From NCBI GenBank assembly GCA_963818575.1, contig CAWFSV010000024.1:65319-129318 (forward strand): 64,000 bases of DNA, written 5' to 3'. Shown one piece after another: positions 32,979 through 60,447 of this stretch. Every line of letters starts with the position of its first letter. Position 1 is the first letter of the stretch. The notes beneath the pieces were generated by a model. That model ran no database searches, was not told the origin of the DNA, and worked only from the letters and a program-made list of their open reading frames with translations. A program made the translations under genes and the position numbers. Source of the DNA: an uncultured Chloroflexia bacterium. GTDB lineage: Bacteria > Chloroflexota > Anaerolineae > Anaerolineales > E44-bin32.

Positions 32979-33056
32979 TGGTCCTCGGTTTGCGTTCTTG
33001 ACCCTTGGCTCTGATCGCGGGCGACTGACCGCAGACGACAGTTCGATGCCGGCTCC

Positions 33057-38132: not shown

Positions 38133-38135
38133 CTC

Positions 38136-42654: not shown

Positions 42655-42665
42655 CGGCTGCGATC

Positions 42666-43245: not shown

Positions 43246-43252
43246 ACGGCGG

Positions 43253-43477: not shown

Positions 43478-43525
43478 GGGGTCGCCTCCGCGCGCGTCCG
43501 GATTCTATCACGCCCGGCCGAGCGG

Positions 43526-45375
43526 TCAGTCGTCCTCGGTCTTGGCGCCTTCGGGGAGCTCGGTGCCCGGGCCGTACTCGTAGATCGCCCGCCACGGCAG
43601 GTAGTGCGTGCGGATGACGTCGTTGTGCAGCGTCTGCCCGTCGCGCAGCACGGTGCGCGTGACGGTGATGTCGGCGCCGTCGGCCTCCCAGTCGACCTGC
43701 TTGATCTTGCCCTCGGACAGGTCGGAGTTCTCCTTGTACAGCGGCTCGGGCGCCTCGACGACGTTGCGGGCGCCGGTCGTTTCCCACGAGACCACCCGGC
43801 CGTCCTTGGCGGAGTAGAACTTCCACTCCAGCGCGTTGCCGTACATGTAGGTTTCCATCAACAGCCAGTGGTCGGTGTCGTTGGTGAACTTGAAATCGAC
43901 CAGCGGGGCGAAGACGGTCGCATCCAGCCCCGGGCCGGGGGAGTTCGGGCCCTGTTCGTAGTAGCCGACGCGGTAGGCGTGCGGGTAGCGCTCGTCGATC
44001 TGGTAGCCGCCGTAGAAGGCGGCGCGGAACAGCGTCGTGCTGACCTGGCACACGCCGCCGCCGACGCCCTTGACGGTGCGGTTGCCGATGATGATCAGCG
44101 CTTCGGCGTAGCCCGAGTCGAGGCTGATGTCGCCCAGCCCGTCGGCCATGGAGAGCGTCTGTCCCGGCGCCACGAGCAGGCCGTGAAAGGCGGACGAGGC
44201 GAGGCGGATGTTCTGAATCCGTTCGGGGCTCGAGCCGGTGAAGTAGGTCTTGGTGCTGACGACCAGCTCGGTGATCCCCAGATCGGCGGCGGTGGCCGTC
44301 CCGGGGACGGCCGGCGTCTCGGTCTGGAAGGCCAGGCCGATCGAGTGCTCGCCGATCGCCAGGCCGTTGTTGATCGCCTCGATCGTGCCGGGGATATCGA
44401 GCACGCGGCCGTCGACCGAGTCCTGGAGCAGGTCGAGCTGGCGCGTGTCGTCGTTGAAGATGAAGCGCGCGTTCTGGGGGCCGCGCTCGAGCCCGGCCGC
44501 CAGCGGCCCCAGGAAATCGGCCATGATCTGCGGTTGGACGCCGATCTGGTAGCGCCCGCCCTGCGTGTCCTGGACCAGGTTGAAGCTCAGCATGCCGGCG
44601 AGTGCCGGCGGATCGAACGACCACGGGCCGGCGCCGTCGGCGGTCAGCGTGAGGGGCTGGCTGAGGATGCGGCGCGCCACGGCCGCCTGTTCGGAGGCGT
44701 CGAGCACCAGTGGCGGTGTCTCGCGCACGACGAGCGGCAGGTCGGCGTCGATCAGCTGGGCGACGCTCGGCTCGATCACCATCAGCGTGGCATCGATGTC
44801 CAGCCGCCGCCCGATCTGGCCGGGCTGCATGATGACCTCGAGCCCGTTGATGCCCAGCGTCGCCTCGAACTGCGGCTTGTCGATCGTCGCCGCCAGACGA
44901 TCTGAAGGTAGGCGGCGCCGCGCGCCTGGTCGAAGACGATCACGGCGGAGACGTCGGCGCCGGAGAGCCAGGCGTCGATCTGCTCCTGCAGGCGCAGGCC
45001 GAGCGAACCGCGGCGCCCGACGGCCAGGGCGCGCTCGGCCACCGCCGCGCCGTCGATGCTGACGCCCAGCTCGGCCGGATGCGCCGTCCACACCGAGGCG
45101 CCGTCGCGCAGCGCCAGCAGGCCGGTCTGCGGATAGGTGTAGGCCTCGGCGACGGCGGCGGCGATCTGCTCGGCCGACTTTCCGCTCAGCCCGACTTCGC
45201 CCGAGCGCACGCCGGGCAGGGCGCGGCCGATGAACAGCACGCGCATGGCGAGCAGGAAGAACAACAGCGCCGCCAGGAAGGAGGCGCCGGCGACGAACGC
45301 CGCCAACAGCAGGCGCGTCAGCAGCGTCAGGGCGTCGGTGGAGTTGCGCGGGAGCAGCGAAGCGGTTCGCATCAT
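43526..45375 (-). CDS. VanW family protein with N-terminal membrane anchor; 1 frame break (~44905)
   Basis: ATG 45375 (MMRTASLL..., TM segment) in the ORF 44782..46293 frame, then ORF 43526..45091 (GGGVCQVSTTLFRAAFYGG...RVGYYEQ...DFKFTNDT). Confidence 0.8.
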
Positions 45376-45445
45376 GGGACCCAGATGGAGGCGGATTCTA
45401 CCACCGGGGTTGACGCCGTCCGCCGCGGTGTGGTTCCCGGAAACC

Positions 45446-46388
45446 TCAGCGCGCCAGGTAGACGTCGACGCTGCTGTAGTGCAGGATGCCGGGCGGTGTA
45501 GATGGCCTGTTCGTAGACCGCGATCCGGCCGTACTGCGAGGCATCCAGGCTGTACGGCACCTGGACTTCGAACGAGCCGACCTCGCCCGGGTTCGTGGTC
45601 GAGAGCGGCACGGTGGCGGAGCCGACGACGTTGCCGCTGCGGTCGAGCACCTCGACGACCAGCGGGCCGGGCGTGTCGAGCCAGCCGCCGCCGCGCACCG
45701 TCACCGGGCTGCCGCGCACGTAGCCGTTGGCGCGCGGCGAGAAGATGGCGATCTTCTCCGCGCCGCCGATGCCCGGGTAGAGCAGGGCGATCCCTTTGGT
45801 GAGCAGCACGACCGAGCGCGTGGCCAGATGATCCATCTGGCCGTCGCGGATGCTGAAGGTGCGCACCTCCAGGCGTGCCGTCTGCGCCACCCACGGGAAG
45901 CTGAACTCGAGATCGGTGAAGATCCGGCCGGCGAGGTCCGGCATCGCCTGCAGGAAGGTCGTGCGGTCGGCGAGGATGTCGCCCTGCTCGCCGATCAGGC
46001 GCAGCCGGACGTGCCCCTTCCAACTCGGGCCGCCGAAGCCGGTGACGCGCAGAGGGCTGACGGCCTGCGAGCCGGGGCCGGGATCGTAGATCGACAGACG
46101 TTCCGCCGGCAGGCCGATGCTGGGCGTCGGAGGGATGGGCGTCGGCGATGGGAGCGGGACCTCGAGCACGATCGGCGGCGTGGCGTCGGTGTAGGGCGGA
46201 GGCGTGGGGCTGGGGACCGGCGTCTCGGTCGGGACGTCGGTGGGCGGCAGAGTGACCGGCGTCGGCGTGGAGGCCGGAGGCGGCGCGCTGCACGCGCCGA
46301 CGAACGCGGCAAGCAGCATCAGCCTCAGCAGGCGCGAGGCGCGCCGGCCGGCTGCGGGCCGCGATTCAGGCGAGCGTTTCCCGGACAT
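45446..46388 (-). CDS. Lipoprotein with Gmad2-like Ig-fold domains; 1 frame break near the 3' end (~45490)
   Basis: ORF 45372..46388: lipobox LLAAFVGAC, a Pro/Thr-rich linker and two Gmad2-like segments. Own translation of the end gives GILHYSSVDVYLAR, with the stop at 45446. Confidence 0.55.
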
Positions 46389-47457
46389 CCAGCTTGCGGG
46401 CCACGCGTTCGATCACTTCGTCGGTGAAGCCCTTCGTTCCGGTGTGGCCCCCGAGATCGGGCGTGGCGATGCCTTCGGCCAGGGCGTCGAAGGTGGCGGC
46501 GTAGATGGCGCGCGAGGCGCGATCGGCGGCCGAGGTCCCGAGGTAGGTCAGCAGCGCGGCGGCGGCCAGGATCATGCCCATCGGGTTGGCGATGTCCTTG
46601 CCCTGCAGCGCCGGGGCGGTGCCGTGCGGCGCCTCGGCCACGGCCACGCGCACCTGGATGGCGTCGTCGTCGAAGGCCAGGACCATCAACTCGGAGCCGG
46701 CGATCGAGCCGTACATCTGGAGCACCAGGTCGGACAGGCAGTCGCCGTCGCGGTTGAGCGCCGGGATGACCAGCGCCTCGCCGGCGGACTGCAGCAGCAG
46801 CGCGTAGGTGGCGTCGATCAGGTGCGGCTCGTAGCGCACGCCGGGGTGGCGCAGCGCGGCGGCGTCGAGCTCTTCCTTGAGCATGCCCTCGTAGACCGGG
46901 CTGACGGTGTACTTCGGCCCGCCGAACACCTTGGCGCCGGTCTTCTCGGCGTGCTGGAAGGAGAACTCGGCCACGGCCCGGCAGGTCTTGCGCGAGATGC
47001 GTTCGATGCGCTGGGCGATCTCGTCGCCGTCGTCATCGAACTTGCGCCACTCGCGGGCCCCGTAGGCATCGCCGACGGCCATGCGCACGACGGCGATCGG
47101 CGCGTGCACGCCGCCGACCGGGCGGACGCCCGGCAGCCGGCGCCCGGTGCGCAGGATGACCTTGCCGTCGATCGCCTCGCGCAGGATGGCGTTCGGGCTG
47201 GAGACGTCGTCCGGCTCCTCGGGCGTGATCGTGGCCGCCTTGAGGCCCAGGCCGTGGCGGCGCAGCGCCTCGGCCGCCTGCTGGATGACCTCGTTGCGCG
47301 TCCGGCGGCGGTTGTCGAGGCTGAGGTCGAAATGGACGAAGGCCAGCGGCAGGCGGATGACCGCCGGGTCGAGGACCCGCAGGGCCTCGAGCAGCAGCTC
47401 CTGCCCGGTCTGGTCGCCATCGAGCACGACGATCGTGCGGCTGGGTACGTCGATCAT
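46366..47457 (-). CDS. Isocitrate/isopropylmalate dehydrogenase family protein
   Basis: Intact 363-aa ORF with NRDGDCLSDL and APHGTAPALQGKDIANP motifs. Substrate not assigned. Confidence 0.8.
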   Translation of the reverse strand: MIDVPSRTIVVLDGDQTGQELLLEALRVLDPAVIRLPLAFVHFDLSLDNRRRTRNEVIQQAAEALRRHGLGLKAATITPEEPDDVSSPNAILREAIDGKVILRTGRRLPGVRPVGGVHAPIAVVRMAVGDAYGAREWRKFDDDGDEIAQRIERISRKTCRAVAEFSFQHAEKTGAKVFGGPKYTVSPVYEGMLKEELDAAALRHPGVRYEPHLIDATYALLLQSAGEALVIPALNRDGDCLSDLVLQMYGSIAGSELMVLAFDDDAIQVRVAVAEAPHGTAPALQGKDIANPMGMILAAAALLTYLGTSAADRASRAIYAATFDALAEGIATPDLGGHTGTKGFTDEVIERVARKLDVRETLA

Positions 47458-47494
47458 GTGCGGATCTCCTGCCCGAACGAGCGCATGAGCAGAC

Positions 47495-47896
47495 TCAACC
47501 GGCGGCGGTGCCGACGGCGCGCAGGCTGAGGGCGGTCAGCAAGAAGAGCAGGAAGGCGTACGACCACTGGGCGCGGTTGTCGTCGCGGCCGCGGGTGATG
47601 ACGTAGAAGACGGGCAGGGTGAGCGCCGTCAGGGCGCCGTACAGGATGTGGATCCCGCGGCCGGGGCGCTCGCCGCCGATGTAGAGCAGCACGCCGAGGA
47701 CGCCCTGTGCCAGGAACAGGAGTTCGCCGACGCCGAGGATGCCCCAGTAGCCCGCTTCGACCGGCCGGCGGCGCAGCGCCGCCACCAGGCCCCAAAGGCC
47801 GGCCAGCACGGTGAACAATGCCACCGTGCCGGCCAGACGAGCATGCAGAAGTGCCAAGGTGATCCTCCGCCGGGGCCGGATGCTGCGTCGACCCAT
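47495..47896 (-). CDS. Hypothetical membrane protein (~133 aa, 4 TM)
   Basis: ATG 47896 within ORF 47495..47950. Hydrophobic helices; no family recognised. Confidence 0.45.
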   Translation of the reverse strand: MGRRSIRPRRRITLALLHARLAGTVALFTVLAGLWGLVAALRRRPVEAGYWGILGVGELLFLAQGVLGVLLYIGGERPGRGIHILYGALTALTLPVFYVITRGRDDNRAQWSYAFLLFLLTALSLRAVGTAAG

Positions 47897-47978
47897 CCGC
47901 GGACTGATTGTAGCATCGCCGCCGCGCGGCGCGGCCGGCATGTTCCGCAAGGATAGATTTGCGACTCACCCTCTGCCT

Positions 47979-48029
47979 CCCTCTCCGCCGCGAGGACGCT
48001 CTCGGCCGCGCGGTGCGTGGCGGAGAGGG
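47979..48029. repeat. REP-like inverted repeat CCCTCTCCGCC-N29-GGCGGAGAGGG
   Basis: Arms at 47979..47989 and 48019..48029. It has the same family and spacer length as 28085..28139. Confidence 0.8.
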
Positions 48030-48040
48030 GTGGAGGAACT

Positions 48041-48073
48041 GAAAAGAGGCGGGGACCATTGGTCCCCGCCTCT
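48041..48073 (-). terminator. Intrinsic terminator of the M32 gene: AGAGGCGGGGACC-loop-GGTCCCCGCCTCT followed by TTTTC (minus strand)
   Basis: Perfect 13-bp stem (48045..48057 / 48061..48073). The A-run at 48042..48045 on the plus strand gives the U tract on the minus strand. Confidence 0.7.
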
Positions 48074-48164
48074 ATCGGCAACCTTCCCGCTTCCCGGTTC
48101 GACTGCCTCGGATGGAGGCCCCGACTTGCCGGAGAAGTGTGTGCGGGCGGGTTACCGCAGGCGA

Positions 48165-49673
48165 TTAGTGCAGCTCGTACACCTCGCCGAACTTGGCGCG
48201 CAGGTAGCGCAGGTACGGCTCGGGCGTCAGGCTCTGGCCGGTGACCTGCCGCAGCAGCTCATCCGGATAGAACTTGGCGCCGTGGCGGTGGACCTTCTCG
48301 CGCAGCCAGCCGAGCAGCCCGCCGAACTCGGCGCGCTCGATCTGCGAGGTGAGATCGGGGATGTCCTTCTCGATCACCTCCCACAGCTGCGCCGCCACCA
48401 GGTTGCCCAGGGCGTAGGTGGGGAAGTAGCCGAACCCGCCGAACGACCAGTGCACGTCCTGCAGCACGCCCTGGGCGTCGTCGGGCGGCGTGATGCCCAG
48501 GTAGTCGCGCACGCGCGTGTTCCACGCCTCGGGCAGGTCCTTCACCGCCAGCGTGCCGCTCATCAGCTCGATCTCGAGCTCGAAGCGCAGCATGATGTGC
48601 AGGTTGTAGGTCGCTTCGTCGGCCTCGACCCGGATCAGCGACGGCTCGACGGTGTTGATCGCCCGGTAGAAGTCGTCCAGCTTGACGTCGCCCAGCGACT
48701 CGGGGAAGAGCTTCTTGAGCCGCGGGTAGAAGGCGATCCAGAACGGGCGGCTGCGGCCGACGAAGTTCTCCCACATGCGCGACTGCGACTCGTGGATCGC
48801 CATCGACGTGCCGGTGGCCAGCGGCGTGCGGTCGAGGTGCACGGCGATGCCCTGCTCGTACAGCCCGTGGCCGGTCTCGTGGATCGTGCCGAACAGCGCC
48901 GGGTTGAGGAACTTGGGATCGAGGCGGGTGGTGATGCGCACGTCGCGCACGCCGAAGGAGGTGGTGAAGGGATGGACCGACTTGTCCTGGCGGCCGGCGT
49001 TGAAGTCGTAGCCCAGCTTGCGGATGACCTCGACGCCGAAGGTCCACTGGCGCTCGACGTCGAAGGCGCGGTGCAGGACGGCGTCGGAGACCTTGCGGCC
49101 GCGTTCGGCCGTGGCGCGCACCAGCTCGACCTGCTGCGGCCGCAGCGCGTCGAAGACCGCCTTGACCTGCTTGGTGGGCATCGCCGGTTCGAAGTCGTCG
49201 AGCAGCGGATCGTAGACGTGGTCGTAGGGGGCGAAGAAGCCGGCGTAGTCGCGGCGCATGGTGACGATCTGTTCGAGCGACGGGCGGAAGTGGGCGAAGT
49301 TGGCGTCGGCGCGGGCCTTCTCCCAGATCGGGTGGGCGAGCGTCGTCAGGCGGGTGAACTCGGCGACGTACTCGGACGGGACGCGGCGCTGCTTGTCGAA
49401 ATCGCGGGCGGCGCGGCGGACGAGGGCGGCGTCGTCGATCTCCGGCGGCTGCCCGGCGACCTCGGCCTGGGCGGCCTGGAGCGCCTCGCCGAACTCGTCG
49501 GAGACGAACATGTCGTGCGACAGCTTGCTGAGCGTCGCCAGCTGCATCGAGCGCCCTTCGGCGCCGGCCGGCGGCATGTAGGTCTGCTGGTCCCAGCTGA
49601 GCAGGGCCGAGGCGGCGTTCAGGTCGAAGATCTCGCCCAGCAGCTGGCGCAGGTGGTCGGTCTTGGCTCCCAT
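48165..49673 (-). CDS. Carboxypeptidase Taq-like M32 metallopeptidase
   Basis: ATG 49673 (GGAGGG RBS) within ORF 48165..49778. HETGHGLYE (HExxH) and IHESQSRMWEN motifs. Intact. Confidence 0.9.
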   Translation of the reverse strand: MGAKTDHLRQLLGEIFDLNAASALLSWDQQTYMPPAGAEGRSMQLATLSKLSHDMFVSDEFGEALQAAQAEVAGQPPEIDDAALVRRAARDFDKQRRVPSEYVAEFTRLTTLAHPIWEKARADANFAHFRPSLEQIVTMRRDYAGFFAPYDHVYDPLLDDFEPAMPTKQVKAVFDALRPQQVELVRATAERGRKVSDAVLHRAFDVERQWTFGVEVIRKLGYDFNAGRQDKSVHPFTTSFGVRDVRITTRLDPKFLNPALFGTIHETGHGLYEQGIAVHLDRTPLATGTSMAIHESQSRMWENFVGRSRPFWIAFYPRLKKLFPESLGDVKLDDFYRAINTVEPSLIRVEADEATYNLHIMLRFELEIELMSGTLAVKDLPEAWNTRVRDYLGITPPDDAQGVLQDVHWSFGGFGYFPTYALGNLVAAQLWEVIEKDIPDLTSQIERAEFGGLLGWLREKVHRHGAKFYPDELLRQVTGQSLTPEPYLRYLRAKFGEVYELH

Positions 49674-49843
49674 GACGGGTGTCCCTCCAAAGGGTGAAGT
49701 GGATGTCAGGTGACAGGTGTCCCAATGATACTGCGTCAGGCGGGCGGGGGAGGCAAGGGGCACATGAGTGTCAGCCATCGGGCAGTTGGAGGATACGTCT
49801 TACAGCCCCTCGCGATATCGGTTGTGCATGGAGAGCAAGCAGG

Positions 49844-50754
49844 CTAAGCAGCAGCCTTGAAGCGGTCGAAGCGCCACCCAAGTGCCTCGGGACTCGGCCA
49901 GTCGCCTTCCGAGTGGGGAAGAGCCAGCCGGTTCCCATCAAGGAGCTTGCAGCCCGTACTTGAGGATGGGGCCGTCGGTCTCATCGAGTACATCGCGCCG
50001 AACGTGTACTGTGTAGTCAGGCGCCACCCCAATGATGAAGCTGTCGAACGCGGCGTGATGCAGCTTGCATAAGGCAATGCCGTTGGTAATGCTCGGTTCG
50101 CCTTCGGGGGCTGTGTCGGGGATGATGTGCGCTGCGTCCAGGAGCTCCTCGTGTCTCAGCCTGCAGAGCGAGCATTGGGAGCGATAGGCCGCGATGACTC
50201 TCTCCCTGAATGATCGCTGATGCAAGCGAACGCGAGTCGTGGCGGTGACATACGCGCGCCGTGCGGTTGCCCTATCGTCAGCAAGCGCACGCTGCATGGG
50301 TTGCGCGACGTAAGCGACGTCATCCACTGCCACGCGAAAGGTCAGCGTGTTCTGATCGTCGCCTGCAACATAGACTGGCCAGATGGCCAAGTACTTGCCG
50401 GGGACGATTCCATGAAAGTAGACCAGCGGTAGCTGGAGGGCCATGGCACGGCGTAGCCCCTGGTTGTCCGGGTGAGATGGGTCAGTGCCTCTGTACTTGT
50501 AGGCGAGGAGACCATCGGGACCAAAGGAGTCGTGGTAAGGACCCTTCGGTGTAGTGGTGATGCTCAAAGGGAACCGCATGAGCACGCGGCTTGAATATCC
50601 CTTGGGGGGCAACTAGGGGGATCCGTTCACCCTCGAACTCAAAGCCCTCCTGGAGCAGCGCACGAGGCAGGACGTCTCCGTGGACCTCTGCCGCCTCGGC
50701 AAGCCAGCGGAAGGCCTCCAGGCGGACTGCAATATCGTGGTCGTCTCCGGTCAT
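49844..50754 (-). CDS. COG3440-type predicted restriction endonuclease with C-terminal HNH (HNH_2) nuclease; 2 frame breaks (~50585, ~49940)
   Basis: ORFs 50482..50817 (from ATG 50754), 49938..50612 (CSLCRLRHEELLDAAHIIPDT...NGIALCKLHHAAFD) and 49844..50077 (C-terminal tail). Lower-GC island. Confidence 0.7.
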
Positions 50755-50951
50755 GAACAGCAACCTACTGGGTATGCCTACCAGGCCTCGAGCTACTCGT
50801 CCTGCGGAAGTGAACACATCCGTATCGACCCGAGGGCATGCAGGCGGGAATGACGGCCCCGCACGGGCACGACCCGCGGGTCATTTTCGGCAAGATGCTC
50901 TGGCGGTCTGAGAAGGCAACGGGACAACTATGCGCTCGGGTCGGAACTCCA

Positions 50952-52662
50952 TTAGAGACGAATCTGGCCGAGCAACCTCCGCGCCGTGTTCGATAGGATC
51001 TTGGTGACCATCGTCTTAGTAGTCGAGGAAGCGATGTTGTGGCCCGATGTATTGCTCCCAAGAGAGTGCTCGGGCGTCCTGTAGATTTGTCCGGAAACCT
51101 CGGCTCCTGCCTGCGGCCCCTTCTCAGGTGCCCAACAACCATCCTCGCTGTGGTAGTCGACGGAGGTGTGGAACTTGCGGCAGTGCAGCGTGTGTTAAGC
51201 TCGGTACCAGTGTTCTCCTTCAGAGAGGCTGTCAGTCATGAGGCGCTTATTGACCTTGCTATGACGTCGATCCGCGGGTTGTGTTGTAGTCCAGAGGTTC
51301 GAACTCGAAGAGCTGGGGACGGAGGGCGAAGACGGTTGTGAATAGACCGAACAGTTCCGACTCGTTGCGGGGCGCAAGGAGTGTCACTTCGTCGAGCCTA
51401 GCCACCTCTCGGCCCTTCAGGTTTTTGATGCGCCTGGTAAACTCCTCCTTCTCCCGCTCGCGAGTAGTCTCCTCCTCTTGCCAAGACTTGAGCGTATAAA
51501 GGTTCTCCTTGATGAGATCCGAGTCCACGTCAGCGATAATGCGTTGAACGGATTCGCGAAGCTCCTCAAGGATCGCAGGGTCGGTATTTGCGACAGTGCC
51601 CCTATTGGCAGTGAGCTCGAGATGCTGACAATTGACGAACGCGTGAAGGAGGACGAACACGTTCGATCCTGACCCGAACCCGGTAATCCACTCGTTCACC
51701 CGGTCGACGGGAATGTTGTCGCGACACACCCATAGCCCGTATCGGTCCGCCACACGGTATCGCCCCGTGTCTGGCCGGTTGCGCTCCCGGATCATCGGGT
51801 TATATCGGCGCTTGACCTCAGTCACCCTCGACAGAAACGACCACCTGGAATGTGACCTCCGGATGAGCGGGAAGGCGCTCATTGAAGATCTTGCGTTTGA
51901 CGTACCAGTCTGGGGCTTCGACGCCCTTGTCGTCCCATAGGCTCTCTATGGAGCCACTCTCTGGAGGGAATACGTGGCCGAATTAAATCTCCTCGGGGTC
52001 TGGCTTGTCCCAGTCGAGACACCGAAGGGTCAGGCGGAAGCCGTCGTGATCGTGGATGCCGAAGATCTGCTCAACCGACCCCATCTTGGTGAACCACTGG
52101 ATGTAGTCCTTGACGATACTCTGAACAATGGGCCTCTTTGATTATCGTTGTAGCCTGTTATGGTGATCTCGGTTCCGAATTTATCAAGGAACGGGGGGAT
52201 GGCACGGACACGAGGCCGGTGGAGCTCTCTTCGAGCTAGGGCGCGGAGCGGATGTTCACAGATGGCTTCGAAGGCACCTTCGGATCCTTGTGTTCGAACG
52301 TGGACAAGGTCCGACCGGAGGTAGATCTTTGTACCGTGCCCCTTCATCCCGATCTTGCCAGCTATCCCGCGGGATTTCGAGTAGCCGAGCCCCCAGAAAT
52401 CCTTGGAGATGACTTCCTTGAGCATTCCCTCGCCGTTGTCGCAGAGGGTAATTACGAGCCTTCGCGATCCATCGATCTCCTTCACCTCGAACGCAATGTC
52501 CATGAACGTGGCCTTGGCGTCAAAGGCGTTAGAGATCGCTTCCCTTAGAAGTTCAAGCGGATCTCCGAAGTCGTTGACGATCTCGACGAATTCAGCTTTT
52601 AGTTGACCTCTGGTGTGATTTCGCTCCCAAGGTGCATGGTCGGGAGCTAGGTCTTGAACCAC
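50952..52662 (-). pseudogene. GHKL (HATPase_c_3, MORC-like) ATPase fused to a PD-(D/E)xK-like C-terminal module; multiple frame breaks plus in-frame TAA codons
   Basis: GTG 52662 with an AAGGAGG RBS. LLREAISNAFDA, CDNGEGM, GMKGHGTK in ORF 52030..52662. It continues in other frames (IVQSIVKDYIQWF...EEI-TAA(51983..51985)-FGHVFPPES) and in ORF 51259..51882 (...FEFEPLDYNTTRG). Own translation of the end gives IDVIARS, EGEHWY, ELKHTLHCRKFHTS, up to TAA 50952. Confidence 0.6.
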
Positions 52663-52810
52663 CTGTTCCTCCTTTCACGCCGAATCCAAGATCCGGATGA
52701 CGGCCGAGCATTGGCCGCCGAACGGTCTCGAGAGAAGCTGAGAGAGAGTAACTGGCAGACCTCGCCGGAGGCTCCGCTAGGTCAGCGTCCGCGAGTTGTT
52801 AGGCGGCAGT

Positions 52811-53274
52811 TTAGTTCAGTGCCTTCCTGATACCGCGAATCGTCCTCTCGTGATCCCTTAGAACCTCGCGAAGGATTCTGTTGAGATCGCCGTCTCGAGG
52901 GACCTTGCCTTTGGCCCGGTTGCCGGGCGTGTCGACAAGTTGGCTTATGAGTGTCTCAATGTCCTTTAGGATACGTAGACTCTCCGTATCCTGAAGATAA
53001 TGAACTGATCCCACTTGCCTGCATGACGATCCTTTGTGTGGTGCCTGATCCTGCCATGTAGATTGCTTGTCAGCCCAATATAGTAGAGCTTACTTCCTCT
53101 GTAGAGGGCATAGATGCCGGCGTACTTCCGCATCATTTGCCGAAGGCGTTGTTCAAACAAGGGACTCTCCAAGATCTCGCTTGGGAGTCGCCGGGACATT
53201 CCCTTGATAAGGGCGCCTTTCGTGCTTCTTCGGCGGGAAGTGCGAGGCTGCTTCTTCTGATCTGTGCCTGGCAT
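52811..53274 (-). CDS. GIY-YIG nuclease domain protein; 1 frame break (~52985)
   Basis: ATG 53274 within ORF 52966..53481: GIYALYRGSKLYYIGLTSNLHGRIRHH...WDQFIIF. The C-terminus is in ORF 52811..53014 (ESLRILKDIETLISQLVDTPGN). Confidence 0.65.
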
Positions 53275-53461
53275 ATGAGACCCCCAAACTCGTGTGCCGC
53301 TGGCCGCCCAATGGCCTCGGGCGATGCTGCCCGGCAGAAGTGGGCAGATCTGCAGGATTCTACGCCTACTCGGCTTGCTGAACAAGCGTTCACGAAAGCG
53401 CCGCCCGCCGGGCGGCCTCAGCGAGTTGTTGGGGGGCACGTGGCTTGAGGCGCGCCTGCAA

Positions 53462-54019
53462 TCAGGCACGCCATCGCACATCTGAGAGGAGCTCGGCGGT
53501 AATCCTCGTGCGCTGTGCGAGCCTCGACGAGCCGCTTGTGTGGAGTCAGGCCATGGTAGAGATGGATCAGGACGCCTTCGTTCTTCGCGACGGTCACGGC
53601 CGGGAGGAGGTCGCTGTCTCCGGCGATGAGGACAGCATGACTGATCTGCTGTTTAGCACTGAGGAGGACTAGGTCGACGCCCAGTTGCAGGTCAACTCCC
53701 TTTTGTACGTAGATCGGTTTGCCCTTATCATCATTGCCTGGATCTACGAAGGCGTACCTTCTCGGACCTCGAATCTCGGGAGTGCCCTGAGCGCAGTGTG
53801 GAATCCCTGAGCTTGTGCGAACCTCGCGGCTTCTTCGGGTGCAGGCTGTGGACGCTGATACGGTAGGCAGTTGTAATAGTAGGTTCTGAGGATATCTACG
53901 CCGCCCGCGATCTCTGGGCAAGCTTTGCGTAGTCGATCCTTCCGTCCGCCGCAAGATTCGCGAACTGTGGCGTCAAGATAGCCGCCATCGATGAAGATCG
54001 CAACTCGTGTCGTATTCAT
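53462..54019 (-). CDS. NYN / LabA-like (DUF88) predicted RNase domain protein; 2 frame breaks (~53760, ~53520)
   Basis: ATG 54019 within ORF 53744..54097 (RVAIFIDGGYLD...) joins ORF 53418..53954 (QKGVDLQLGVDLVLLS...VLIAGDSDLLPAV). Own translation of the end gives RITAELLSDVRWRA, with the stop at 53462. Confidence 0.65.
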
Positions 54020-54119
54020 GGAAACCCCCTGGAAAGACAAAGGCCACCCTTGCGGATGGCCTACGAATGCCACAGCCCGAGTCATCGCGAATCGCAACGC
54101 CGGGGCGGATCACATTGAT

Positions 54120-54147
54120 ATTGTAGTCACTAGAGCGAGATTGTCGA
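54120..54147 (-). promoter_or_regulatory. Promoter candidate for the island (minus strand): TCGACA, 16 nt, TACAAT
   Basis: Read directly, ~95 nt upstream of the NYN start. Confidence 0.3.
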
Positions 54148-54400
54148 ACGTAGTACATGTGTTCTACCGAGGCATCACACGCCGTCACGGACATGCGGGC
54201 AAGGCCGTCAACACCGATTTGTCCTTATGTCCACGTTGCCGCCCAACCTGAGGATTCTACATCGTCGCACGCCCCGCAGGCCGCCCGGCGGTACTGGTCG
54301 CCCAACCGCCTCACCTCGTCCAGGCACGCATCATCGTTCGGATTGCGGTCGATAGGCGGTGGCGAACCAGGCGTCGAGGATCTCCTCCGTCTGCGCCTCG

Positions 54401-54959
54401 CTACGCCGCGACCTCGCCGCTCAGCACGCCGTACACCTCCATGTCGTCGATCGTGCCCCACTTGACGGTGTGCTGCCGAAGCGTGCCCTCGTGGCGCATG
54501 CCGACCTTCTCCATCACCCGCCCGGAGGCCGGGTTGCGGCCGTAGTGCTGGGCGAAGACGCGGCGCAGCCCGAGCACGTCGAACGCAAAGCGCACGACGG
54601 CGAGCGCCGCCTCGGTGCAGTAGCCCTGGTTCCAGTAGGGCTTGCCGATCCAGTAGCCGAGCTCGGCACGCTGCATCTCGGCGTTGATCTCGAGCCCGAT
54701 CGCCCCGACCAGCGCGCCGTCCTCGAGGCGCTCGATGCCGAAGACGACGCCGCTCGCCGCGCGCATACCGGTCAGCATGCGTTCCGATCCAGGCCTCGGC
54801 CGCCCCGTCGGGATACGGGTGCGGGATCGTGGCGGTCGTCTCGGCGACGGCGCGATCACCGGCCAGCCGCTGGACGTCGGCGGCGTCGGCCAGCGTCAGC
54901 GGCCGCAGCACCAGCCGCTTCGTCGTCAGCCGCGGGATGGAGGCCGGCGCGGCGGTCAC
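54401..54959 (-). CDS. GNAT family (RimJ/RimL-like) N-acetyltransferase; 1 frame break (~54785)
   Basis: GTG 54959 overlaps the stop of the upstream gene (GTGA). LTTKRLVLRPLTLADAADV in the ORF 54225..55460 frame, then ORF 54401..54859 (GAIGLEINAEMQRAELGYWIGKPYWNQGYCTEA). Confidence 0.75.
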
Positions 54960-56904
54960 GGCTCGACCTCCAGGCTGACGAACAGCGGCAGATGGTCGGA
55001 GGCGGTCGTCGCCGGGACGACGGCGTCGACGGCGCGCAAATCGGGCGTGTGCCACACCCAGTCGATGCGCTCGAACGGACCGACGGCCGGCCAGGTCAGC
55101 CCGTCGCCCGTGCCGGCTTCGGCCCACGAATTGACCCACCCGGCGTCGGCGATCAACTGCATCTCGGCATAATCCGGCTCGGAGTTCAGGTCGCCGAGCA
55201 GGATCGAATACGGCCGCCCGTCCCAGAAGTCGAGCAGCACCGGCACCTGCGCCAGCCGCGGCGCGTGCTCGCTCTCGACGTGGTGCAGGTGGGTGACGAT
55301 GACCAGCAGCGGCTCGGGCAGCCCGGCGTCGATCGACGCCCACAGGTAGCCGCGCGGGAAGTGCGTGCCGGCCAGCGGCAAGCGGCGCCGAGCCGCTCTC
55401 GCGGATCGGCAGGCGCGTCAGCAGCGCGTTGCCCCAGACCGGGTCGGTCGTGCCCGGCAAAGAGCACCTGCATCTCGAGCCGATCCGCCAGCCAGGCGAC
55501 CAGGTCGGTCGAGCCGTCGAGCAGCCAGCCGCGCGACACCTCTTGCAGGGCGACGATGTCGGCCTCGGTCGATTCGATCACGCGGGCGATCGCCTCGGGG
55601 TCCTGCGCGCCGGCGCTGTCGTAGGCCGAATGGATGTTGTAGGTCAGCACGCGCAGTGGTGCACCGGTCGGCGAGACCGCGGCGGGCGGGATCCGGCTGC
55701 ACCAGCGAGAAGACCATCACGGGCAGGAAGACGCCGGCGACGGCGATGAAGGCGGCGGCGGAGGCGGATCGCGGCAGGCCGCGCACGGGCAGGCGGACGG
55801 TGGCGGCGACGACGGTCAGGCCGAAGGCGACCGCCGCCGCGGGCAGAAGCGACTCGCGCGAGACGGGCAGCGGCAGGTCGAGCGAGACGTAGTACGCAAA
55901 CGTCAGCCCAAGGAAGACGATCAGCCCGAGGTTCAGGCTGATGGAGGTGCGCGCCATCCCGCCGGTCGTCGGCGGTGCGGTCGCCATGGCGATGGCCGCC
56001 AGGCTCCAACCGACGACGAACTGGGCGATGACGAGGTTGATGGTGAAGGCGGGTGTGATCTGGGTGGCGACGCTGGCCGAAAGCGCCAGACAGGCGATGC
56101 CCAGAAACGCCGGTCAGCGGTCGCAGCGCGAACGGGCGCGTCAGCCCGGTCCACAGGCCGGCCGCCAGCACCAGGTTGCCGATCATCGCCAGGACGAACG
56201 CCGCCGCGGCCGACAGCCCGGCGACCTGTGCGATCCAGCCCTGGTTCTGGTAGACCATCGCCTGCAGGAACAGGAGCGGGCCGATGCCGAGCAGTGGCAG
56301 AGCGGCGGGCCAGCCGACCTCGCTCTCGACGCCCGGCCCGACCGCCGGCTCGCGGCGCACGAGGTACAGCACGGCGGCGCATTCGGCGGCGATGACGACG
56401 AGGGCGACGATGCCGCGCGACCAGCTCAGGTCGAGCGTGCCGCCGAAACCCTTGATCGCCGTATCGAGCGCCAGGCCCAGCGCCAGCCCGCCGGCCAATC
56501 GAATCGCAGCCGTCGGCGCATCGCGAGGCGCGCAGGTGAGCGATGAGCGCCGGCAGTGCGATCAGAAACACGACGGTGCCGAGCAGGCTCAGGCCGAGAT
56601 CGACCGCCGGGTCGTGCACGATCTGTTCGGCCAGGCGCACGAGCGCCAGCCCTCCCACGGAGTAGCGCAGCATGGCGGTGGGGCCCAGCGCGCGGCGCAG
56701 CGGTGCGGCGATGAACCCGAGCAGAAACGTGCCGAAGGCGCACGCGCCGAGCACCGCCGAACCGACGCCCAGCGTGTCGCGCAGATACCAGGCCAGGCTG
56801 GGGATGAAGACCCGCAGCAGCTGCAGCCCGAGTGTCACCACGAGCGCGGGCAGCGCCAGGCGGGTGAGGTCGGTGCGCAGTTGTGCCTGCGGCGGAGTGT
56901 CCAT
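54956..56904 (-). CDS. Polytopic membrane domain (~430 aa) fused to a C-terminal endonuclease/exonuclease/phosphatase (EEP) domain; ~5 frame breaks
   Basis: ATG 56904 (MDTPPQAQLRTDLTRLALPALVV...). Membrane pieces lie in ORFs 55933..57435, 55644..56498 and 55418..55987. EEP pieces: 55186..55650 (LTYNIHSAYD...DIVALQEV), the head of 54225..55460, and 54956..55381 (LLGDLNSEP...IDWVWHT...SDHLPLFVSL). Confidence 0.6.
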
Positions 56905-56997
56905 GGGCTCTCCCTCGTCTGACCGAAGAGTGTAGCGCATCCGCCTGCGGCCGACGCGCTTGTGGGATAATGGAAAGTCGTCCGCGGGGGAAGCCAC

Positions 56998-58281
56998 GTG
57001 CGTTTCCAGACGATCTGCGTCCTCGGGCTGGGCTACATCGGCCTGCCGACGGCCAGCACCTTCGCCAACTCCGGCCTGAAGGTCATCGGCGTCGATGTCA
57101 ACGAGCGCATCGTCGCCGGCCTGCGCCAGGGCGAGCTGCACATCGAGGAGCCGGGGCTGCGCACGCTGGTCCAGGCGGCGCTGGCCTCCGGCAACCTGCG
57201 CATCGCCGCACAGCCCGAGCCGGCCGACGCCTTCCTGATCGCCGTGCCGACGCCGGTGCGCTTCGACAAGCGCGCCGACCTGAGCGCCGTCGTCGCCGCC
57301 GCCGAGTCGATCGTCCCGCACCTGCGCCGCTCGAACCTGGTGGTGCTCGAATCGACCTCCCCGCCGCGCACGACGGTCGACGTCATCGCCCCGATCCTCG
57401 AGCGCTCGGGGCTGCGCGCCGGCGTCGATTTCCACCTGGCCTACTCACCCGAACGCGTCCTGCCCGGCCAGATCCTGCGCGAGCTGGTCGAGAACGCCCG
57501 CGTCATCGGCGGGTTCGACCGGGCGTCGGCCGAGGCCGGGCGCGATCTGTACGCCGCCTTCGTGCGCGGCGAGATCGTGCTCACCGACGCCACGACGGCC
57601 GAGATGGTCAAGCTGATGGAGAACACCTACCGCGACGTCAACATCGCCGCGGCCAACGAGTTCGCCCGCCTGGCCGATCGCTTCGGCGTCGACGTGTGGG
57701 AGGCGATCGCCCTGGCCAACCGCCACCCGCGGGTCGAGATCCTGCGCCCGGGCCCGGGCGTGGGCGGGCACTGCATCAGCGTCGACCCGTGGTTCCTGGT
57801 CGAGTCGGCGCCCGAGCTGACGGCGCTCATCCGCCAGGCGCGGCAGGTGAACGATGCGCAGCCGGCGTTCGCCGCCGGGCTGATCGAACGGGCGCTGGGC
57901 GGGCTGCGCGGGCGGTCGATCGCCGCCCTCGGGCTGGCCTACAAGCCGGATGTGGATGACCTGCGCGAAAGCCCGGCGATCGAGGTCGCCAGGCTGTTGG
58001 CGAATGGCGGGGCGCGGGTGACGACCTTCGAGCCGTTCGCCCCGGAGACGGTCGTCCCCGGCTGCGAAACGGCGGCGTCGCTCGAGGCGGCGCTCAAGGA
58101 TGCCGAGGCGGTCGTGCTGCTGGCGGATCACCGCGCCTTCATCGATCTCGATCCGGCGCGTGTCGCAGCGATGATGCCCGGGCGCGTGGCGGTCGATACG
58201 CGCGGCCGCTGGGATCGCGCGCGGTGGACGGCGGCCGGGTTCCGACTGCACGTCCTCGGGGCGGGCGAGCGCGATGGCTGA
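56998..58281 (+). CDS. wecC: UDP-N-acetyl-D-mannosamine dehydrogenase
   Basis: Intact 427-aa ORF (GTG start). ICVLGLGYIGLPTASTFA...GELHIEEPGL closely parallels the E. coli WecC N-terminus. Catalytic GGHCI present. Confidence 0.85.
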   Translation: MRFQTICVLGLGYIGLPTASTFANSGLKVIGVDVNERIVAGLRQGELHIEEPGLRTLVQAALASGNLRIAAQPEPADAFLIAVPTPVRFDKRADLSAVVAAAESIVPHLRRSNLVVLESTSPPRTTVDVIAPILERSGLRAGVDFHLAYSPERVLPGQILRELVENARVIGGFDRASAEAGRDLYAAFVRGEIVLTDATTAEMVKLMENTYRDVNIAAANEFARLADRFGVDVWEAIALANRHPRVEILRPGPGVGGHCISVDPWFLVESAPELTALIRQARQVNDAQPAFAAGLIERALGGLRGRSIAALGLAYKPDVDDLRESPAIEVARLLANGGARVTTFEPFAPETVVPGCETAASLEAALKDAEAVVLLADHRAFIDLDPARVAAMMPGRVAVDTRGRWDRARWTAAGFRLHVLGAGERDG

Positions 58282-59402
58282 ACGCAGCGCTGCGCGTCCT
58301 GTCGGTCTTCGGCACGCGGCCCGAAGCGGTCAAGATGGCGCCGGTCGTCCTGCGCCTGCGCCAGACGCCGGGCGTCGACTCGCTCGTGTGCGTCACCGCC
58401 CAGCACCGGCAGATGCTCGATCAGGTGCTCGACCTGTTCCACCTCAAGCCGGACTTCGACCTCGACCTGATGCAGCCGGACCAGTCGCTGGCCGATACGG
58501 CGGCGGCGGTGTTCACCGGGCTCGATCCGGTCCTGGCGAAGGTGCAGCCGGACTGGGTGCTGGTGCAGGGCGACACGACGACGGTGGTGGCGGCGGCGCT
58601 GGCGGCCTACTACCGCAAGATCCGCCTGGGTCACGTCGAGGCCGGGCTGCGCACCGGCGACAAGTGGCGCCCGTTCCCCGAGGAGATCAACCGGCGCGTC
58701 GCCGGCGTGGTCGCCGATCTGCACTTCGCCCCCACCGACTGGGCGCGGGACAACCTGCTGCGCGAGGGCGTGCCCGACGAGCGGATCGTGGTGACCGGCA
58801 ACCCGGTCATCGATGCGCTGCAGATGATCGTGGCGCTGCCGTACGATTTCGAGAGCGGGCCTTTGGCGAACATGAATCCTGACCGCCGGCTGATCCTGGT
58901 CACCGCCCACCGGCGCGAGAGCTTCGGCAAGCCGCTGGAGGACATCTTCCGCGCGCTGAAGGAGCTGGCGAAGAAGTACGCCACGCAGGCGGAGATCCTG
59001 TACCCGGTGCACCTCAACCCGAACGTCGCCGAGCCGGCTATGCGCATCCTGGGCAGCTCGACCAACGTGCGGCTGGTCGACCCGCTCGACTACCACACGA
59101 TGGTGCACTGCATGCAGCGCGCCTATCTGGTGCTGTCCGACTCGGGCGGCGTGCAGGAAGAAGCGCCGGCGCTCGGGACGCCGGTGCTCGTGCTGCGCGA
59201 GGTGACCGAGCGCCCGGAGGCGCTCGAGGCGGGCACGGCGCGGCTGGTCGGCACCGACACCGAGCGGATCGTGGCCGAGGCGTCGCGCCTGATGGACGAT
59301 CCGCAAGCCCACGCCGCCATGGCCAAAGCGGCCAACCCCTACGGCGACGGCCACGCCGCCGAACGCATCGTCGACGCGCTGCTGGCCGCCTCCCGAGCGT
59401 GA
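58224..59402 (+). CDS. wecB: UDP-N-acetylglucosamine 2-epimerase (non-hydrolysing)
   Basis: VLSVFGTRPEAVKMAPVV...VTAQHRQMLDQV...GHVEAGLRTG...HRRESFG...YPVHLNPNV...[10 protein letters not shown]. Start uncertain: either GTG 58224 (58-nt overlap with wecC) or ATG 58274 with an early 1-nt indel. Confidence 0.88.
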   Translation: MDGGRVPTARPRGGRARWLNAALRVLSVFGTRPEAVKMAPVVLRLRQTPGVDSLVCVTAQHRQMLDQVLDLFHLKPDFDLDLMQPDQSLADTAAAVFTGLDPVLAKVQPDWVLVQGDTTTVVAAALAAYYRKIRLGHVEAGLRTGDKWRPFPEEINRRVAGVVADLHFAPTDWARDNLLREGVPDERIVVTGNPVIDALQMIVALPYDFESGPLANMNPDRRLILVTAHRRESFGKPLEDIFRALKELAKKYATQAEILYPVHLNPNVAEPAMRILGSSTNVRLVDPLDYHTMVHCMQRAYLVLSDSGGVQEEAPALGTPVLVLREVTERPEALEAGTARLVGTDTERIVAEASRLMDDPQAHAAMAKAANPYGDGHAAERIVDALLAASRA

Positions 59403-59496
59403 CCTGCATCGAGCGAATGCCTCGACGCCGTAGCCCCAGGACGCAATTGCATTCCAGCCGGCCGGTCGTCCCAACAGCCGTCGCTGCGGACCCAAT

Positions 59497-60354: not shown

Positions 60355-60447
60355 CCTCGCTCGAGCGAATGCCTCGACGCCGTAGCCACAGGACGCAATT
60401 GCATTCCAGCGGGCGATCGTCCCAACAGCTCGCTCCTGCGACCTCCA

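Follow-up and report, generated by a model that had tools for sequence, protein, structure and literature searches.

GHKL and HNH Nucleases With Probable Roles in Restriction and Defense

ParaMORC3 proteins, described by Iyer, Abhiman & Aravind (2008), combine a GHKL ATPase module and an S5 domain with a C-terminal restriction-endonuclease-fold domain that bears a D-ExK motif (PMC2292703). They have been reported mainly from Proteobacteria and Bacteroidetes, often stand alone without a conserved gene neighborhood, and have a patchy distribution attributed to lateral transfer; the same authors speculated that the standalone forms may have functions unrelated to restriction-modification (R-M; PMC2292703). 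VcSduA, a single-gene defense system of Shedu type I-D from Vibrio cholerae that is experimentally anti-phage, is a single polypeptide whose GHKL ATPase precedes a clamp-like middle domain, with a PD-(D/E)xK nuclease at the C-terminus (PMC12137116). For both proteins, the proposed mechanism is that of an ATP-gated nuclease (PMC2292703; PMC12137116). TagI and ScoMcrA (PDB 6ghs, 5zmm) are SRA-HNH restriction endonucleases of type IV, i.e., modification-dependent (PMC7461809; PMC6224610).

The locus considered here is a cluster of four genes, each with a nuclease or ATPase domain, in a 64,000-nucleotide stretch of a Chloroflexota metagenome assembly (the window). It lies between the genes for an M32 carboxypeptidase and a GNAT protein, an intergenic site that is best read as a strain-variable hotspot of independent modules. 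Two of the four nucleases are probably restriction-type defense enzymes, and the island as a whole is best regarded as an ordinary example whose interest is modest.

A Strain-Variable Island Between Two Core Genes

A first-pass annotation of the window had noted a drop in base composition between the M32 and GNAT genes and had placed an island at 49780–54150. Windowed GC bears out the drop, 0.580 vs 0.683 in the rest of the window, and the island is indeed there, with slightly wider limits. Homology with the sister MAG L001, which is ~94% identical in nucleotide sequence across the flanks, ends at 49762 and restarts at 54252, delimiting a low-GC variable island of ~4.49 kb (49763–54251). The lowest GC of any equally sized stretch elsewhere in the window is 0.651 (sd 0.016); the island lies about 6 sd under such stretches, the deviating base composition by which islands are recognized. 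The flanking genes are core genes, all on the minus strand: an intact M32 carboxypeptidase gene (48165–49673; Pfam Peptidase_M32, 3.4e-178), with zero frameshifts against L001, and a block encoding a membrane protein, an EEP phosphatase/nuclease-fold protein and the GNAT protein (54404–57057).

The content of the site differs among close relatives, another hallmark of islands. At the identical position L001 has a different low-GC insert of 3.3 kb, which encodes an intact HNH homolog of 302 aa together with an aldo/keto reductase and an uncharacterized protein of 249 aa; the HNH gene is the only one common to the two inserts, and its copies share 76% nucleotide identity, against the much closer match of the flanks. 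In a more distant relative (L003) the site is empty, with a GNAT–M32 gap of ~260 bp at native GC; the sample thus comprises one empty and two occupied states. Two further relatives (L004 and L005) carry a native dehydrogenase gene there, and the L002 contig stops exactly at the M32 start. Comparison of orthologous loci thus upholds the suspected insertion between the M32 and GNAT genes. The three signatures of mobility that the first-pass annotation had failed to see were all searched for and not found: there is no tRNA in the window, no integrase ORF in the window or in L001, and no flanking direct repeat at the island boundaries.

The island is a real, strain-variable, foreign-looking insert between two core genes. 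It resembles other hotspots between core genes in its fixed flanks, atypical composition and nuclease-rich cargo that varies among close relatives, and differs from them in having no integrase, tRNA, repeat boundary or recognized named defense system.

A GHKL ATPase With a Nuclease-Type C-Terminus

The gene at 50932–52662 (minus strand) encodes a GHKL ATPase with an S5-like transducer domain and a C-terminal domain of the PD-(D/E)xK nuclease type (Pfam HATPase_c_3, 1.8e-6, and HATPase_c). Its family, ~570 aa in length and represented by 788 homologs of which the best is 79% identical, extends to Chloroflexi (Dehalococcoides) and many metagenomic lineages. The ISNAFDA, DNGEGM and GMKGHG motifs can be read directly in the open reading frame at 52030–52662, and E41, N45, D48, D75xGxG79 and G105..G110 do not vary across the family; the protein thus has the Bergerat-fold motifs I–III and the transducer (S5) domain that define GHKL enzymes. 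A Foldseek search with its AF2 model retrieves Hsp90, TopoVI-B, SMCHD1, MutL, GyrB and MORC3 over 400–600 columns. MORC3 ranks only about 30th (TMt 0.50), after Hsp90 and TopoVI-B, and a profile search of the PDB gives MORC4 an E-value of 0.54. The original description, a MORC-like GHKL ATPase with a restriction-endonuclease-like C-terminus, stands as to GHKL, ISNAFDA, DNGEGM and the D..ExK residues of the family; the label "MORC-like" adds no precision to "GHKL plus transducer."

In the C-terminal domain D466, E486 and K488 are invariant throughout the family and fall within an alpha-beta-beta-beta pattern of secondary structure in the AF2 model. The catalytic string GIDVIAR ... ELK, previously read in the window, is found there in part. 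GIDVIAR is nearly present, as TTRG and, beyond a frameshift, DVIAR, but an intact ELK is absent from the window, where one frame gives RA* and another TELN; the broken site corresponds to the E486-x-K488 that is invariant in homologs. This domain has no match in Pfam and no sequence-profile match in the PDB. DUF4263 (PF14082) is not detected by Pfam at E ≤ 10 in either the isolated domain or the full protein, and Shedu models have no match in PADLOC at E ≤ 10 and none by PDB profile. Membership in Shedu (SduA), whose hallmark is the DUF4263 nuclease domain, was accordingly rejected. BbrUII/HgiDII restriction enzymes (NF050001) and REase_II are the best NCBIfam and PADLOC matches to the N-terminus. 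The former share a GHKL-type ATP-binding motif at their N-terminus with the island protein, but the match reaches 29–33 bits vs a cut-off of 550 and is confined to ~60 residues around Bergerat motifs I–II, and membership in this group was rejected as well.

The island ATPase is best read as a GHKL nuclease resembling paraMORC3 and VcSduA, an assignment that compares architectures. By the published description, it shares with paraMORC3 the GHKL module, the S5 domain, a restriction-endonuclease-fold domain with D-ExK residues and the standalone habit; one difference lies in distribution, since the island family reaches Chloroflexi and metagenomic lineages beyond the Proteobacteria and Bacteroidetes. 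With VcSduA it shares a GHKL ATPase, a clamp-like domain in the middle and a C-terminal nuclease on a single polypeptide, but its C-terminus has no detectable DUF4263, so the likeness is one of analogous architecture and does not imply homology of the nuclease domains. Gene neighborhoods vary among homologs of the ATPase and often include R-M genes, e.g., a C5 methyltransferase (MTase), AlwI, NgoFVII with a D12 MTase, and an N6_N4 MTase with DpnI. The GHKL nuclease would most likely dimerize like other GHKL enzymes, and ATP binding and hydrolysis would gate its C-terminal nuclease on foreign DNA.

An HNH_2 Endonuclease With a Predicted SRA-Like Domain

The HNH_2 nuclease that the earlier reading had recognized is confirmed by Pfam (1.4e-10). 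Its gene (49847–50754, minus strand), with frameshifts near 50583 and 49943, encodes a protein of a family ~300 aa in length that has 81% amino-acid identity to the intact L001 homolog. This family has at least 350 representatives of 50%-identity clusters at E < 1e-30; Pfam HNH_2 is found in 42/42 members, and C196, C199, H211, N226, C231, H234 and H235 are invariant. The family profile matches TagI and VcaM4I in their HNH regions, and the C-terminal nuclease has the catalytic His/Asn and Cys residues of SRA-HNH type IV enzymes. NCBIfam PT-DNA_restrict (NF045808) scores 66.6 bits vs a cut-off of 180 and covers residues 173–297, the HNH part only; an SBD-HNH phosphorothioate-dependent restriction endonuclease was rejected on these grounds.

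The first-pass annotation had suggested a search of the N-terminal domain for SRA/PUA-like readers, and its outcome is divided. A structure model built from the truncated ORF aligns over its full length to TagI (Foldseek, E 1.8e-4), and its N-terminal domain matches the SRA domain of SUVH5 with probability 1.0 (TMt 0.43, rmsd 3.5–4.3, ~95 columns), as well as those of SUVH6 and ScoMcrA. Pfam SAD_SRA, however, matches none of the 42 family members, which sets the family apart from TagI and ScoMcrA; the domain is SRA-like by predicted fold only. The arrangement of a predicted N-terminal beta-barrel reader followed by an HNH_2-type nuclease is that of TagI and ScoMcrA, and TagI, too, is encoded by a standalone gene for ~300 aa. 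The island enzyme is most likely a type IV, modification-dependent one, in which the reader domain would bind modified DNA and the HNH domain would cut.

Small GIY-YIG and NYN Genes

Both of the remaining gene assignments held up. The small GIY-YIG nuclease-family gene (52814–53274, minus strand; ~153 aa) has one frameshift, near 52977, and agrees with an intact homolog (P0121) at 142/152 residues. The Pfam GIY-YIG model gives 22.2 bits on the fragment, just below the 22.6 cut-off, and 23.5 bits on P0121. The family has 455 homologs of ~155 aa, and R-M, toxin-antitoxin (TA) and integrase contexts are seen among homologs. The NYN/LabA-like gene (53465–54019, minus strand; ~185 aa) has four frameshifts, at 53941, 53913, 53755 and 53522, and is identical to the homolog P0241 at 143/180 residues, with Pfam NYN at 1.1e-6 on the fragment and 4.7e-16 on P0241. 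This family has 469 homologs, some of which lie amid housekeeping genes.

Independent Modules or One System

The reading that probably holds is that of a hotspot of four independent modules, in which the HNH and GHKL proteins are defense-type nucleases and the frame breaks are mainly assembly errors. The M32–GNAT hotspot would, in the window genome, hold four single-gene modules that were independently acquired and are independently transcribed. The four genes are indeed not one system: they are unrelated single-gene nucleases, independent because their families (all large and well conserved) are mostly standalone, because homologs of the NYN, GIY-YIG and HNH genes occur at 0/83 ATPase loci (485 kb of flank searched), and because the NYN and GIY-YIG homologs have contexts unlike one another's and unlike that of the window. 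The other three island genes are likewise absent from the nine NYN loci and the five GIY-YIG loci.

An integrated, previously unnamed multi-gene defense system would account for the shared strand and adjacency of the genes, the nuclease or ATPase domain in each and the lack of a named system that matches them, yet it is very improbable. The first-pass annotation had offered the four genes as a combination and had named beforehand, as grounds for dropping it, that they never co-occur in other genomes; in the loci examined they never do, which largely refutes a single system. The nearest relatives of the GIY-YIG and ATPase genes adjoin genes other than those in the window, L001 retains the HNH gene alone amid entirely different ones, and intergenic gaps of 150–190 bp suggest separate transcription units and not tight operon coupling. 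Single-strand genes with similar spacers in the window and L001, cargo that differs at a fixed site, and short spacer modules common to the fronts of different genes could also point to an integron-like cassette array (CALIN) of promoterless cassettes with attC sites and an integrase encoded elsewhere. This is highly unlikely, and was disfavored, as the spacers have no R''/R' (RYYYAAC...GTTRRRY) pairs, fold as ssDNA no better than shuffles (z −1.5 to +1.2) and yield nothing with Rfam; neither the window nor L001 has an integrase, as described above. Somewhat less remote, though still improbable, is a generic horizontally acquired island without a defense role, with selfish or homing GIY-YIG and HNH genes, an NYN gene for RNA metabolism and a GHKL gene for some other DNA transaction. 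The earlier statement that no named defense system fits agrees with PADLOC, in which no named-system model matches any of the four proteins and, beyond a generic HNH match (6e-18), only weak ones to REase_II, NYN, HEC-09 and PDC-S14 were obtained; this result, the housekeeping neighbors of NYN homologs and the speculation of Iyer et al. on standalone paraMORC3 (PMC2292703) all favor an island with no part in defense. It is opposed by the TagI- and ScoMcrA-like build of the HNH protein, by the recurrence of ATPase homologs beside MTases and restriction endonucleases, by the anti-phage activity of the similarly built VcSduA (PMC12137116) and by the contexts of the GIY-YIG homologs. The proposal of a candidate defense island is upheld as to a variable nuclease island whose gene families elsewhere adjoin R-M, integrase, TA and prophage genes, and not as to any named system.

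Every island gene has frame breaks, as had been noted: frameshift-aware alignment gives at least 9 in the ATPase gene (against P0001), 2 in the HNH gene, 1 in the GIY-YIG gene and 4 in the NYN gene, 16 in total. Two in-frame stops, both TAA, lie in the ATPase gene; the one read before at 51983–51985 is real in the sequence, and a second is at 51197–51195. Four pseudogenes decaying after an old acquisition would explain the frameshift density of the island, 4.4 per kb (16 in 3.65 kb) or about three times the 1.44 per kb of native genes (18 in 12.5 kb), and the crowding of breaks in the nuclease domain of the ATPase (51270–50930), whose catalytic ExK motif has been lost. They would also fit the TAA at 51985, which differs from TCA (Ser in P0002) by a simple substitution and may be a true nonsense mutation. 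Some real decay may have contributed, given this density, but decay as the general explanation is unlikely. The GNAT/EEP/membrane block, which serves as a control for assembly noise, has 7 frameshifts in 2.65 kb vs L001 (56523, 56108, 55690, 55455, 55382, 55021 and 54752), or 2.6 per kb, with GNAT and EEP themselves disrupted; disruption specific to the island genes was not found. Indels against the two sister MAGs are mostly not multiples of three throughout the assembly (88/91 vs L001; 48/50 vs L002), the TAA at 51197 arises from two small nearby deletions, one of them in an A-run, and consensus errors should be more frequent in a strain-variable region, where fewer reads would be expected to support the assembly. 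Between the breaks, the island genes keep their conserved motifs and 73–93% amino-acid identity to intact homologs. Since the flanks are also broken and the indels are mostly non-triplet, the frame breaks are attributed to long-read assembly error; errors in the consensus of a noisy long-read metagenome assembly would mainly account for the frameshifts and for one or both of the stops, without implying gene death, and the suggestion that the ATPase gene is truly dead and the island partly decayed was not sustained. Upstream of the NYN gene, on the same minus strand as all four island genes, lies a sigma-70-like promoter candidate by consensus, TCGACA-16-TACAAT (54120–54147; 10/12 positions matched).

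A strain-variable site between the M32 and GNAT genes

Between an intact M32 carboxypeptidase gene (48165-49673/49778) and the GNAT gene to its right, GC content falls from 0.69-0.73 to 0.55-0.61 over the interval from ~49750 to ~54250. The refined island, 49763-54251, has a GC of 0.580 vs 0.683 in the rest of the window, where equally sized windows have a minimum of 0.651. The island codes on the minus strand throughout, and a Pfam run on raw ORF fragments places four domain sets on this strand: HNH_2 (49938-50612), HATPase_c_3 with HATPase_c (52030-52662), GIY-YIG (52966-53481, borderline on the fragment) and NYN (53418-53954). The first-pass annotation was thus right in its physical observation of a low-GC island carrying four minus-strand nuclease/ATPase genes. 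It also reported neither tRNA nor flanking direct repeats, which stands: a tRNA scan of the window found none, and a search of the island ends found neither direct nor inverted repeats. No integrase is present at the locus.

Relatives were found with an M32 protein scan of one-genome-per-species contigs, which returned two very close matches, both MAGs labelled "uncultured Chloroflexia" whose isolate names carry the prefix MFD, presumably from the Danish long-read soil and sediment MAG series. The contig of one sister MAG, L001, is collinear with the window on both sides of the island at ~92-94% identity (blastn; window 42661-49674 = L001 17052-10027 on the left, 54319-59493 = 6732-1566 on the right). 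Between these blocks, 4.6 kb of the window is replaced by a different 3.3-kb stretch in L001 (GC 0.57-0.63), which encodes an aldo/keto reductase, an intact 302-aa HNH homolog and a 249-aa protein; by sensitive blastn, homology breaks off at 49762 and resumes at 54252. The HNH gene is common to both inserts, at 76% nucleotide identity, far under that of the flanks. In a more distant relative with an M32 protein 79% identical (L003), GNAT is followed by M32 after ~260 bp of native GC, i.e., the site is empty, and two other relatives have a native dehydrogenase gene at the island position. The proposed insertion between the M32 and GNAT genes is therefore borne out by the different insert in L001 and the empty site in L003, and the M32|GNAT site is a genuine strain-variable hotspot of an uncultured Chloroflexi lineage, its cargo turning over between genomes ~94% identical. 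Because integrase and repeats are absent, homologous recombination through the flanking core genes would be the most economical route of island turnover.

The contig of the second sister MAG, L002, begins (position 1 = window 49673) at the M32 start, exactly at the island boundary, which would fit an assembly interrupted at the hotspot by heterogeneity among strains. The 249-aa protein of L001 (9135-9884) lies between HNH and M32; it has no match in Pfam or NCBIfam and a weak PADLOC match to REase_II (16.5 bits).

Turnover could also be pictured as the exchange of cassettes in an integron-like array (CALIN), as the island genes lie on one strand, spacers are regular in both the window and L001, and short spacer modules are common to the two genomes ahead of different genes. 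One such module (window 53412-53305, L001 7947-8053) includes the hairpin CTGCCCNCTTCNGCCGGGCAG, which lies upstream of a different gene in each genome, GIY-YIG in the window and HNH in L001. However, the spacers carry no attC cores, fold as single-stranded DNA no better than shuffled sequence and have no match in an Rfam search, and the cassette array is rejected. The common modules could be recombination or promoter modules; at the GNAT-side boundary, window 54275-54252 and L001 6775-6798 share a conserved, -10-like GTAGAATCC element.

Four standalone gene families

Each island gene is a member of a large, well-conserved family of standalone proteins. The ATPase family (typically ~570 aa) gave 788 cluster matches among 8,000 candidates scored, with a best identity of 79%; the GIY-YIG family (~155 aa) 455 matches, up to 89%; the NYN family (~185 aa) 469 matches, up to 73%; and the HNH family (~300 aa) at least 350 cluster representatives at E<1e-30. 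Co-occurrence was sampled by tblastn in 80 metagenomic ATPase loci together with loci from an exact-protein look-up. Across 83 ATPase loci and 485 kb of flank, homologs of NYN, GIY-YIG, HNH and the L001 249-aa protein were found in none, and the remaining island genes were likewise absent from the NYN and GIY-YIG loci examined. Within this sample the genes never co-occur elsewhere, an outcome that the first-pass annotation itself had named as refuting, and the novel four-gene combination suggested there is rejected as a system. With spacers of 150-190 bp, the island genes look like separate transcription units.

The island is plausible as a defence-type island, a fresh instance of a known feature type with nothing surprising in kind. 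Its modest interest lies mainly in two widespread standalone nuclease families, both large and uncharacterised, namely a divergent SRA-like-HNH family and a paraMORC3/VcSduA-like GHKL nuclease family, neither of which was classified by the PADLOC 2.0 models tried, and in a lesson about assembly noise.

The smaller genes, GIY-YIG and NYN, are both confirmed as families. GIY-YIG homologs adjoin integrases, and one is the last gene of a type IIG-like MTase/SNF2 module, with TA genes alongside. A conserved GIY-YIG partner was sought among its neighbours and rejected, the neighbouring proteins of 176, 172 and 195 aa being mutually unrelated; at the locus of the closest GIY-YIG relative (L187), a different gene follows. 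This unannotated gene (L187 617-1201) encodes a product with a PD-(D/E)xK-like stretch (PDGFAFD...WYVIEAEL) and no Pfam match. Homologs of NYN occur on a prophage-like contig, among housekeeping genes, and, alongside HEPN_AbiU2, in an island rich in nucleases whose GIY-YIG protein is of another family than that of the window. Viral contigs scanned with single NYN and GIY-YIG proteins yielded no relatives. On present evidence, we would not call NYN a defence gene.

A GHKL ATPase with a predicted C-terminal nuclease domain

The Bergerat motifs are invariant in the ATPase family (E41, N45, D48; D75-G-x-G; G105..G110), and an AF2 model (pLDDT 76) matches Hsp90, TopoVI-B, SMCHD1, MutL, GyrB and MORC3 over the GHKL and transducer domains. 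"MORC-like", as the protein was first described, is acceptable, but with Hsp90, TopoVI-B and GyrB among the matches it says no more than "GHKL + S5". Within the last ~150 residues, G-I-D466 and E486-x-K488 are invariant and lie in an alpha-beta-beta-beta setting, which makes a PD-(D/E)xK signature; the intact ELK motif read earlier in the island copy was not confirmed. Sequence searches of Pfam, PADLOC and PDB with the C-terminal domain gave no match, and the family as a whole escapes both the PADLOC 2.0 models tried and every Pfam nuclease model.

The ATPase resembles two described cases in architecture and standalone habit. The first is the paraMORC3 family, a prediction of Iyer et al. (2008; PMC2292703). 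The second is VcSduA, which belongs to Shedu type I-D, combines a GHKL domain and a clamp with a DUF4263 nuclease, and has been validated experimentally as a single-gene defence (PMC12137116). Unlike in VcSduA, DUF4263 is undetected by Pfam in the ATPase, and PADLOC and PDB profiles give no Shedu match, also with the isolated C-terminal domain. Membership of Shedu is accordingly rejected, and the ATPase is said to "work like" Shedu: by analogy, it would likely dimerise into a clamp, driven by ATP, through which the nuclease is licensed to act on foreign DNA.

The genomic company of ATPase homologs is varied: a C5 MTase with Fic; AlwI with NgoFVII and a D12 MTase; a RelA_SpoT gene; nothing notable; and, in one case, a Caballeronia plasmid. 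In 8-10 of the ~36 loci with enough flank (including L111, L115-L117, L121, L125, L126 and L154), the gene, in a subclade of the family, follows an N6_N4 DNA methyltransferase and precedes a gene of the DpnI/Dam-replacing family (PF06044 + PF17726), an arrangement that looks like a recurrent three-gene R-M-like module. Tentatively, and with more doubt than confidence, the family may be read as very widespread single-gene, ATP-gated anti-phage or restriction nucleases, with Shedu type I-D (VcSduA) as a functional analogue whose nuclease domain is unrelated; one subclade would then act alongside an N6/N4 methyltransferase and a DpnI-like enzyme.

A 120-bp stretch of the L001 249-aa protein region is 75% identical in nucleotides to the ATPase 3' region of the window, which raised the idea that the ATPase 3' end is fused to a gene like that of the L001 249-aa protein. 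At the protein level, this end scores 167 against the ATPase family vs 57 against the 249-aa protein, and the chimera is rejected.

A probable SRA-like-HNH protein

HNH_2 is present in 42/42 aligned members of the HNH family, as their sole Pfam domain. A PDB search with the single sequence returned nothing but spurious matches to lignin peroxidase. With the family profile, the matches were limited to the HNH regions of two modification-dependent enzymes, TagI (6ghs) and VcaM4I (6yex). An AF2 model built from the window ORF and 42 homologs has a mean pLDDT of 75.8, with ~90 in N-domain residues 10-105. Foldseek aligns this model with TagI over both domains (E 1.8e-4), with the SRA domain of SUVH5 (probability 1.0, rmsd 3.5-4.3 Å, ~95 columns), with those of SUVH6 and SUVH9, and with the SBD-SRA fragment of ScoMcrA. 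By eye, the family consensus, Y.YRG.D...DN..LR.A....PLIYF.GV..G.Y....PV.IV, resembles what we take to be the SRA pattern, Y.G.GG...N.AL...PVRV...YDG.Y.V. The N-domain, which the first-pass annotation suggested searching for SRA/PUA-like readers, looks SRA-like in its predicted fold, and we conclude that the protein is probably an SRA-like-HNH, type IV-like enzyme, the SRA part coming from the predicted structure. A PT-dependent (sulfur-binding-domain) identity is rejected, as the NCBIfam PT-DNA restriction model (NF045808) matches the HNH half alone, with a score under the cut-off.

Frame breaks: decay or assembly noise

Each island gene was compared with its nearest intact homolog using a frameshift-aware protein-to-DNA aligner written for this analysis. 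On the minus strand, the ATPase (52662-50932) has 412/563 residues identical to its homolog P0001, with 9 frameshifts and 2 in-frame TAA codons; HNH (50754-49847) has 242/300 identical to the L001 protein, with 2 frameshifts; GIY-YIG (53274-52814) has 142/152 identical to P0121, with 1; and NYN (54019-53465) has 143/180 identical to P0241, with 4. The island total, 16 frameshifts in 3.65 kb (4.4 per kb), compares with 18 in 12.5 kb (1.44 per kb) in native window genes, aligned in the same way to open L001 ORFs, and with 7 in 2.65 kb (2.6 per kb) in the membrane, EEP and GNAT block adjoining the island, where the GNAT and EEP frames are visibly broken in the ORF list. One-base indels are frequent in the native genes of the window assembly. 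GC3 phase tracking proved too noisy for frameshift counts across the window.

These breaks had been taken as partial decay, with at least the ATPase gene perhaps dead, a reading undercut by the broken native neighbours and by the nature of the indels, 88/91 events between the window and L001 and 48/50 between the window and L002 not being multiples of three. Such non-triplet indels in core genes are unlike those of real ~94%-identical genomes, and therefore at least one assembly is error-prone; the ORF patterns suggest that both the window and L001 are. In L001, e.g., an extra G opposite window 55020 fuses EEP to GNAT. Lower read support for a strain-variable segment would account for the higher frameshift density in the island, which is marked above all at 51270-50930. 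Of the two stops in the ATPase, the TAA at 51197 is the product of two small deletions, homologs implying TGGTACATCGAGCTTAAACAC where the window has TGGTAC--CGAGCTTAA-CAC; that at 51985 (ATT TAA TTC) is a single substitution from TCA, Ser in the homolog P0002, and could be real or an error. Some true decay may have occurred, but a "partly decayed" island is unproven and not the likeliest reading. Any pseudogene call in the window requires confirmation at the read level and, more generally, frameshifts and in-frame stops within an island of a noisy long-read MAG are no evidence for pseudogenisation unless native neighbours are clean.

Other features of the window

At the left end of the left collinear block, ~1.57 kb of L001 (17052-18618) corresponds to only ~80 bp of the window (42581 to 42661), so that the two genomes differ here by a further indel or insertion. 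To the right of the island, a direct duplication of ~610 bp (58869-59478 and 59823-60429; 84-98% identity, spacing ~951 bp) has both copies aligning to one L001 stretch (1559-2194), and the 325-bp filler between them (59494-59818, GC 0.57) is missing from L001; part of a gene may truly have been duplicated or inserted here, or the assembly may be at fault. Finally, ~7 kb at 30500-38000 has a lowered GC of 0.61-0.68, strongly positive GC and AT skew, and fragmented minus-strand ORFs without Pfam matches, and may likewise be of foreign origin or else be very dense in errors; the only family match near it is an Epimerase ORF at 37648-38754.
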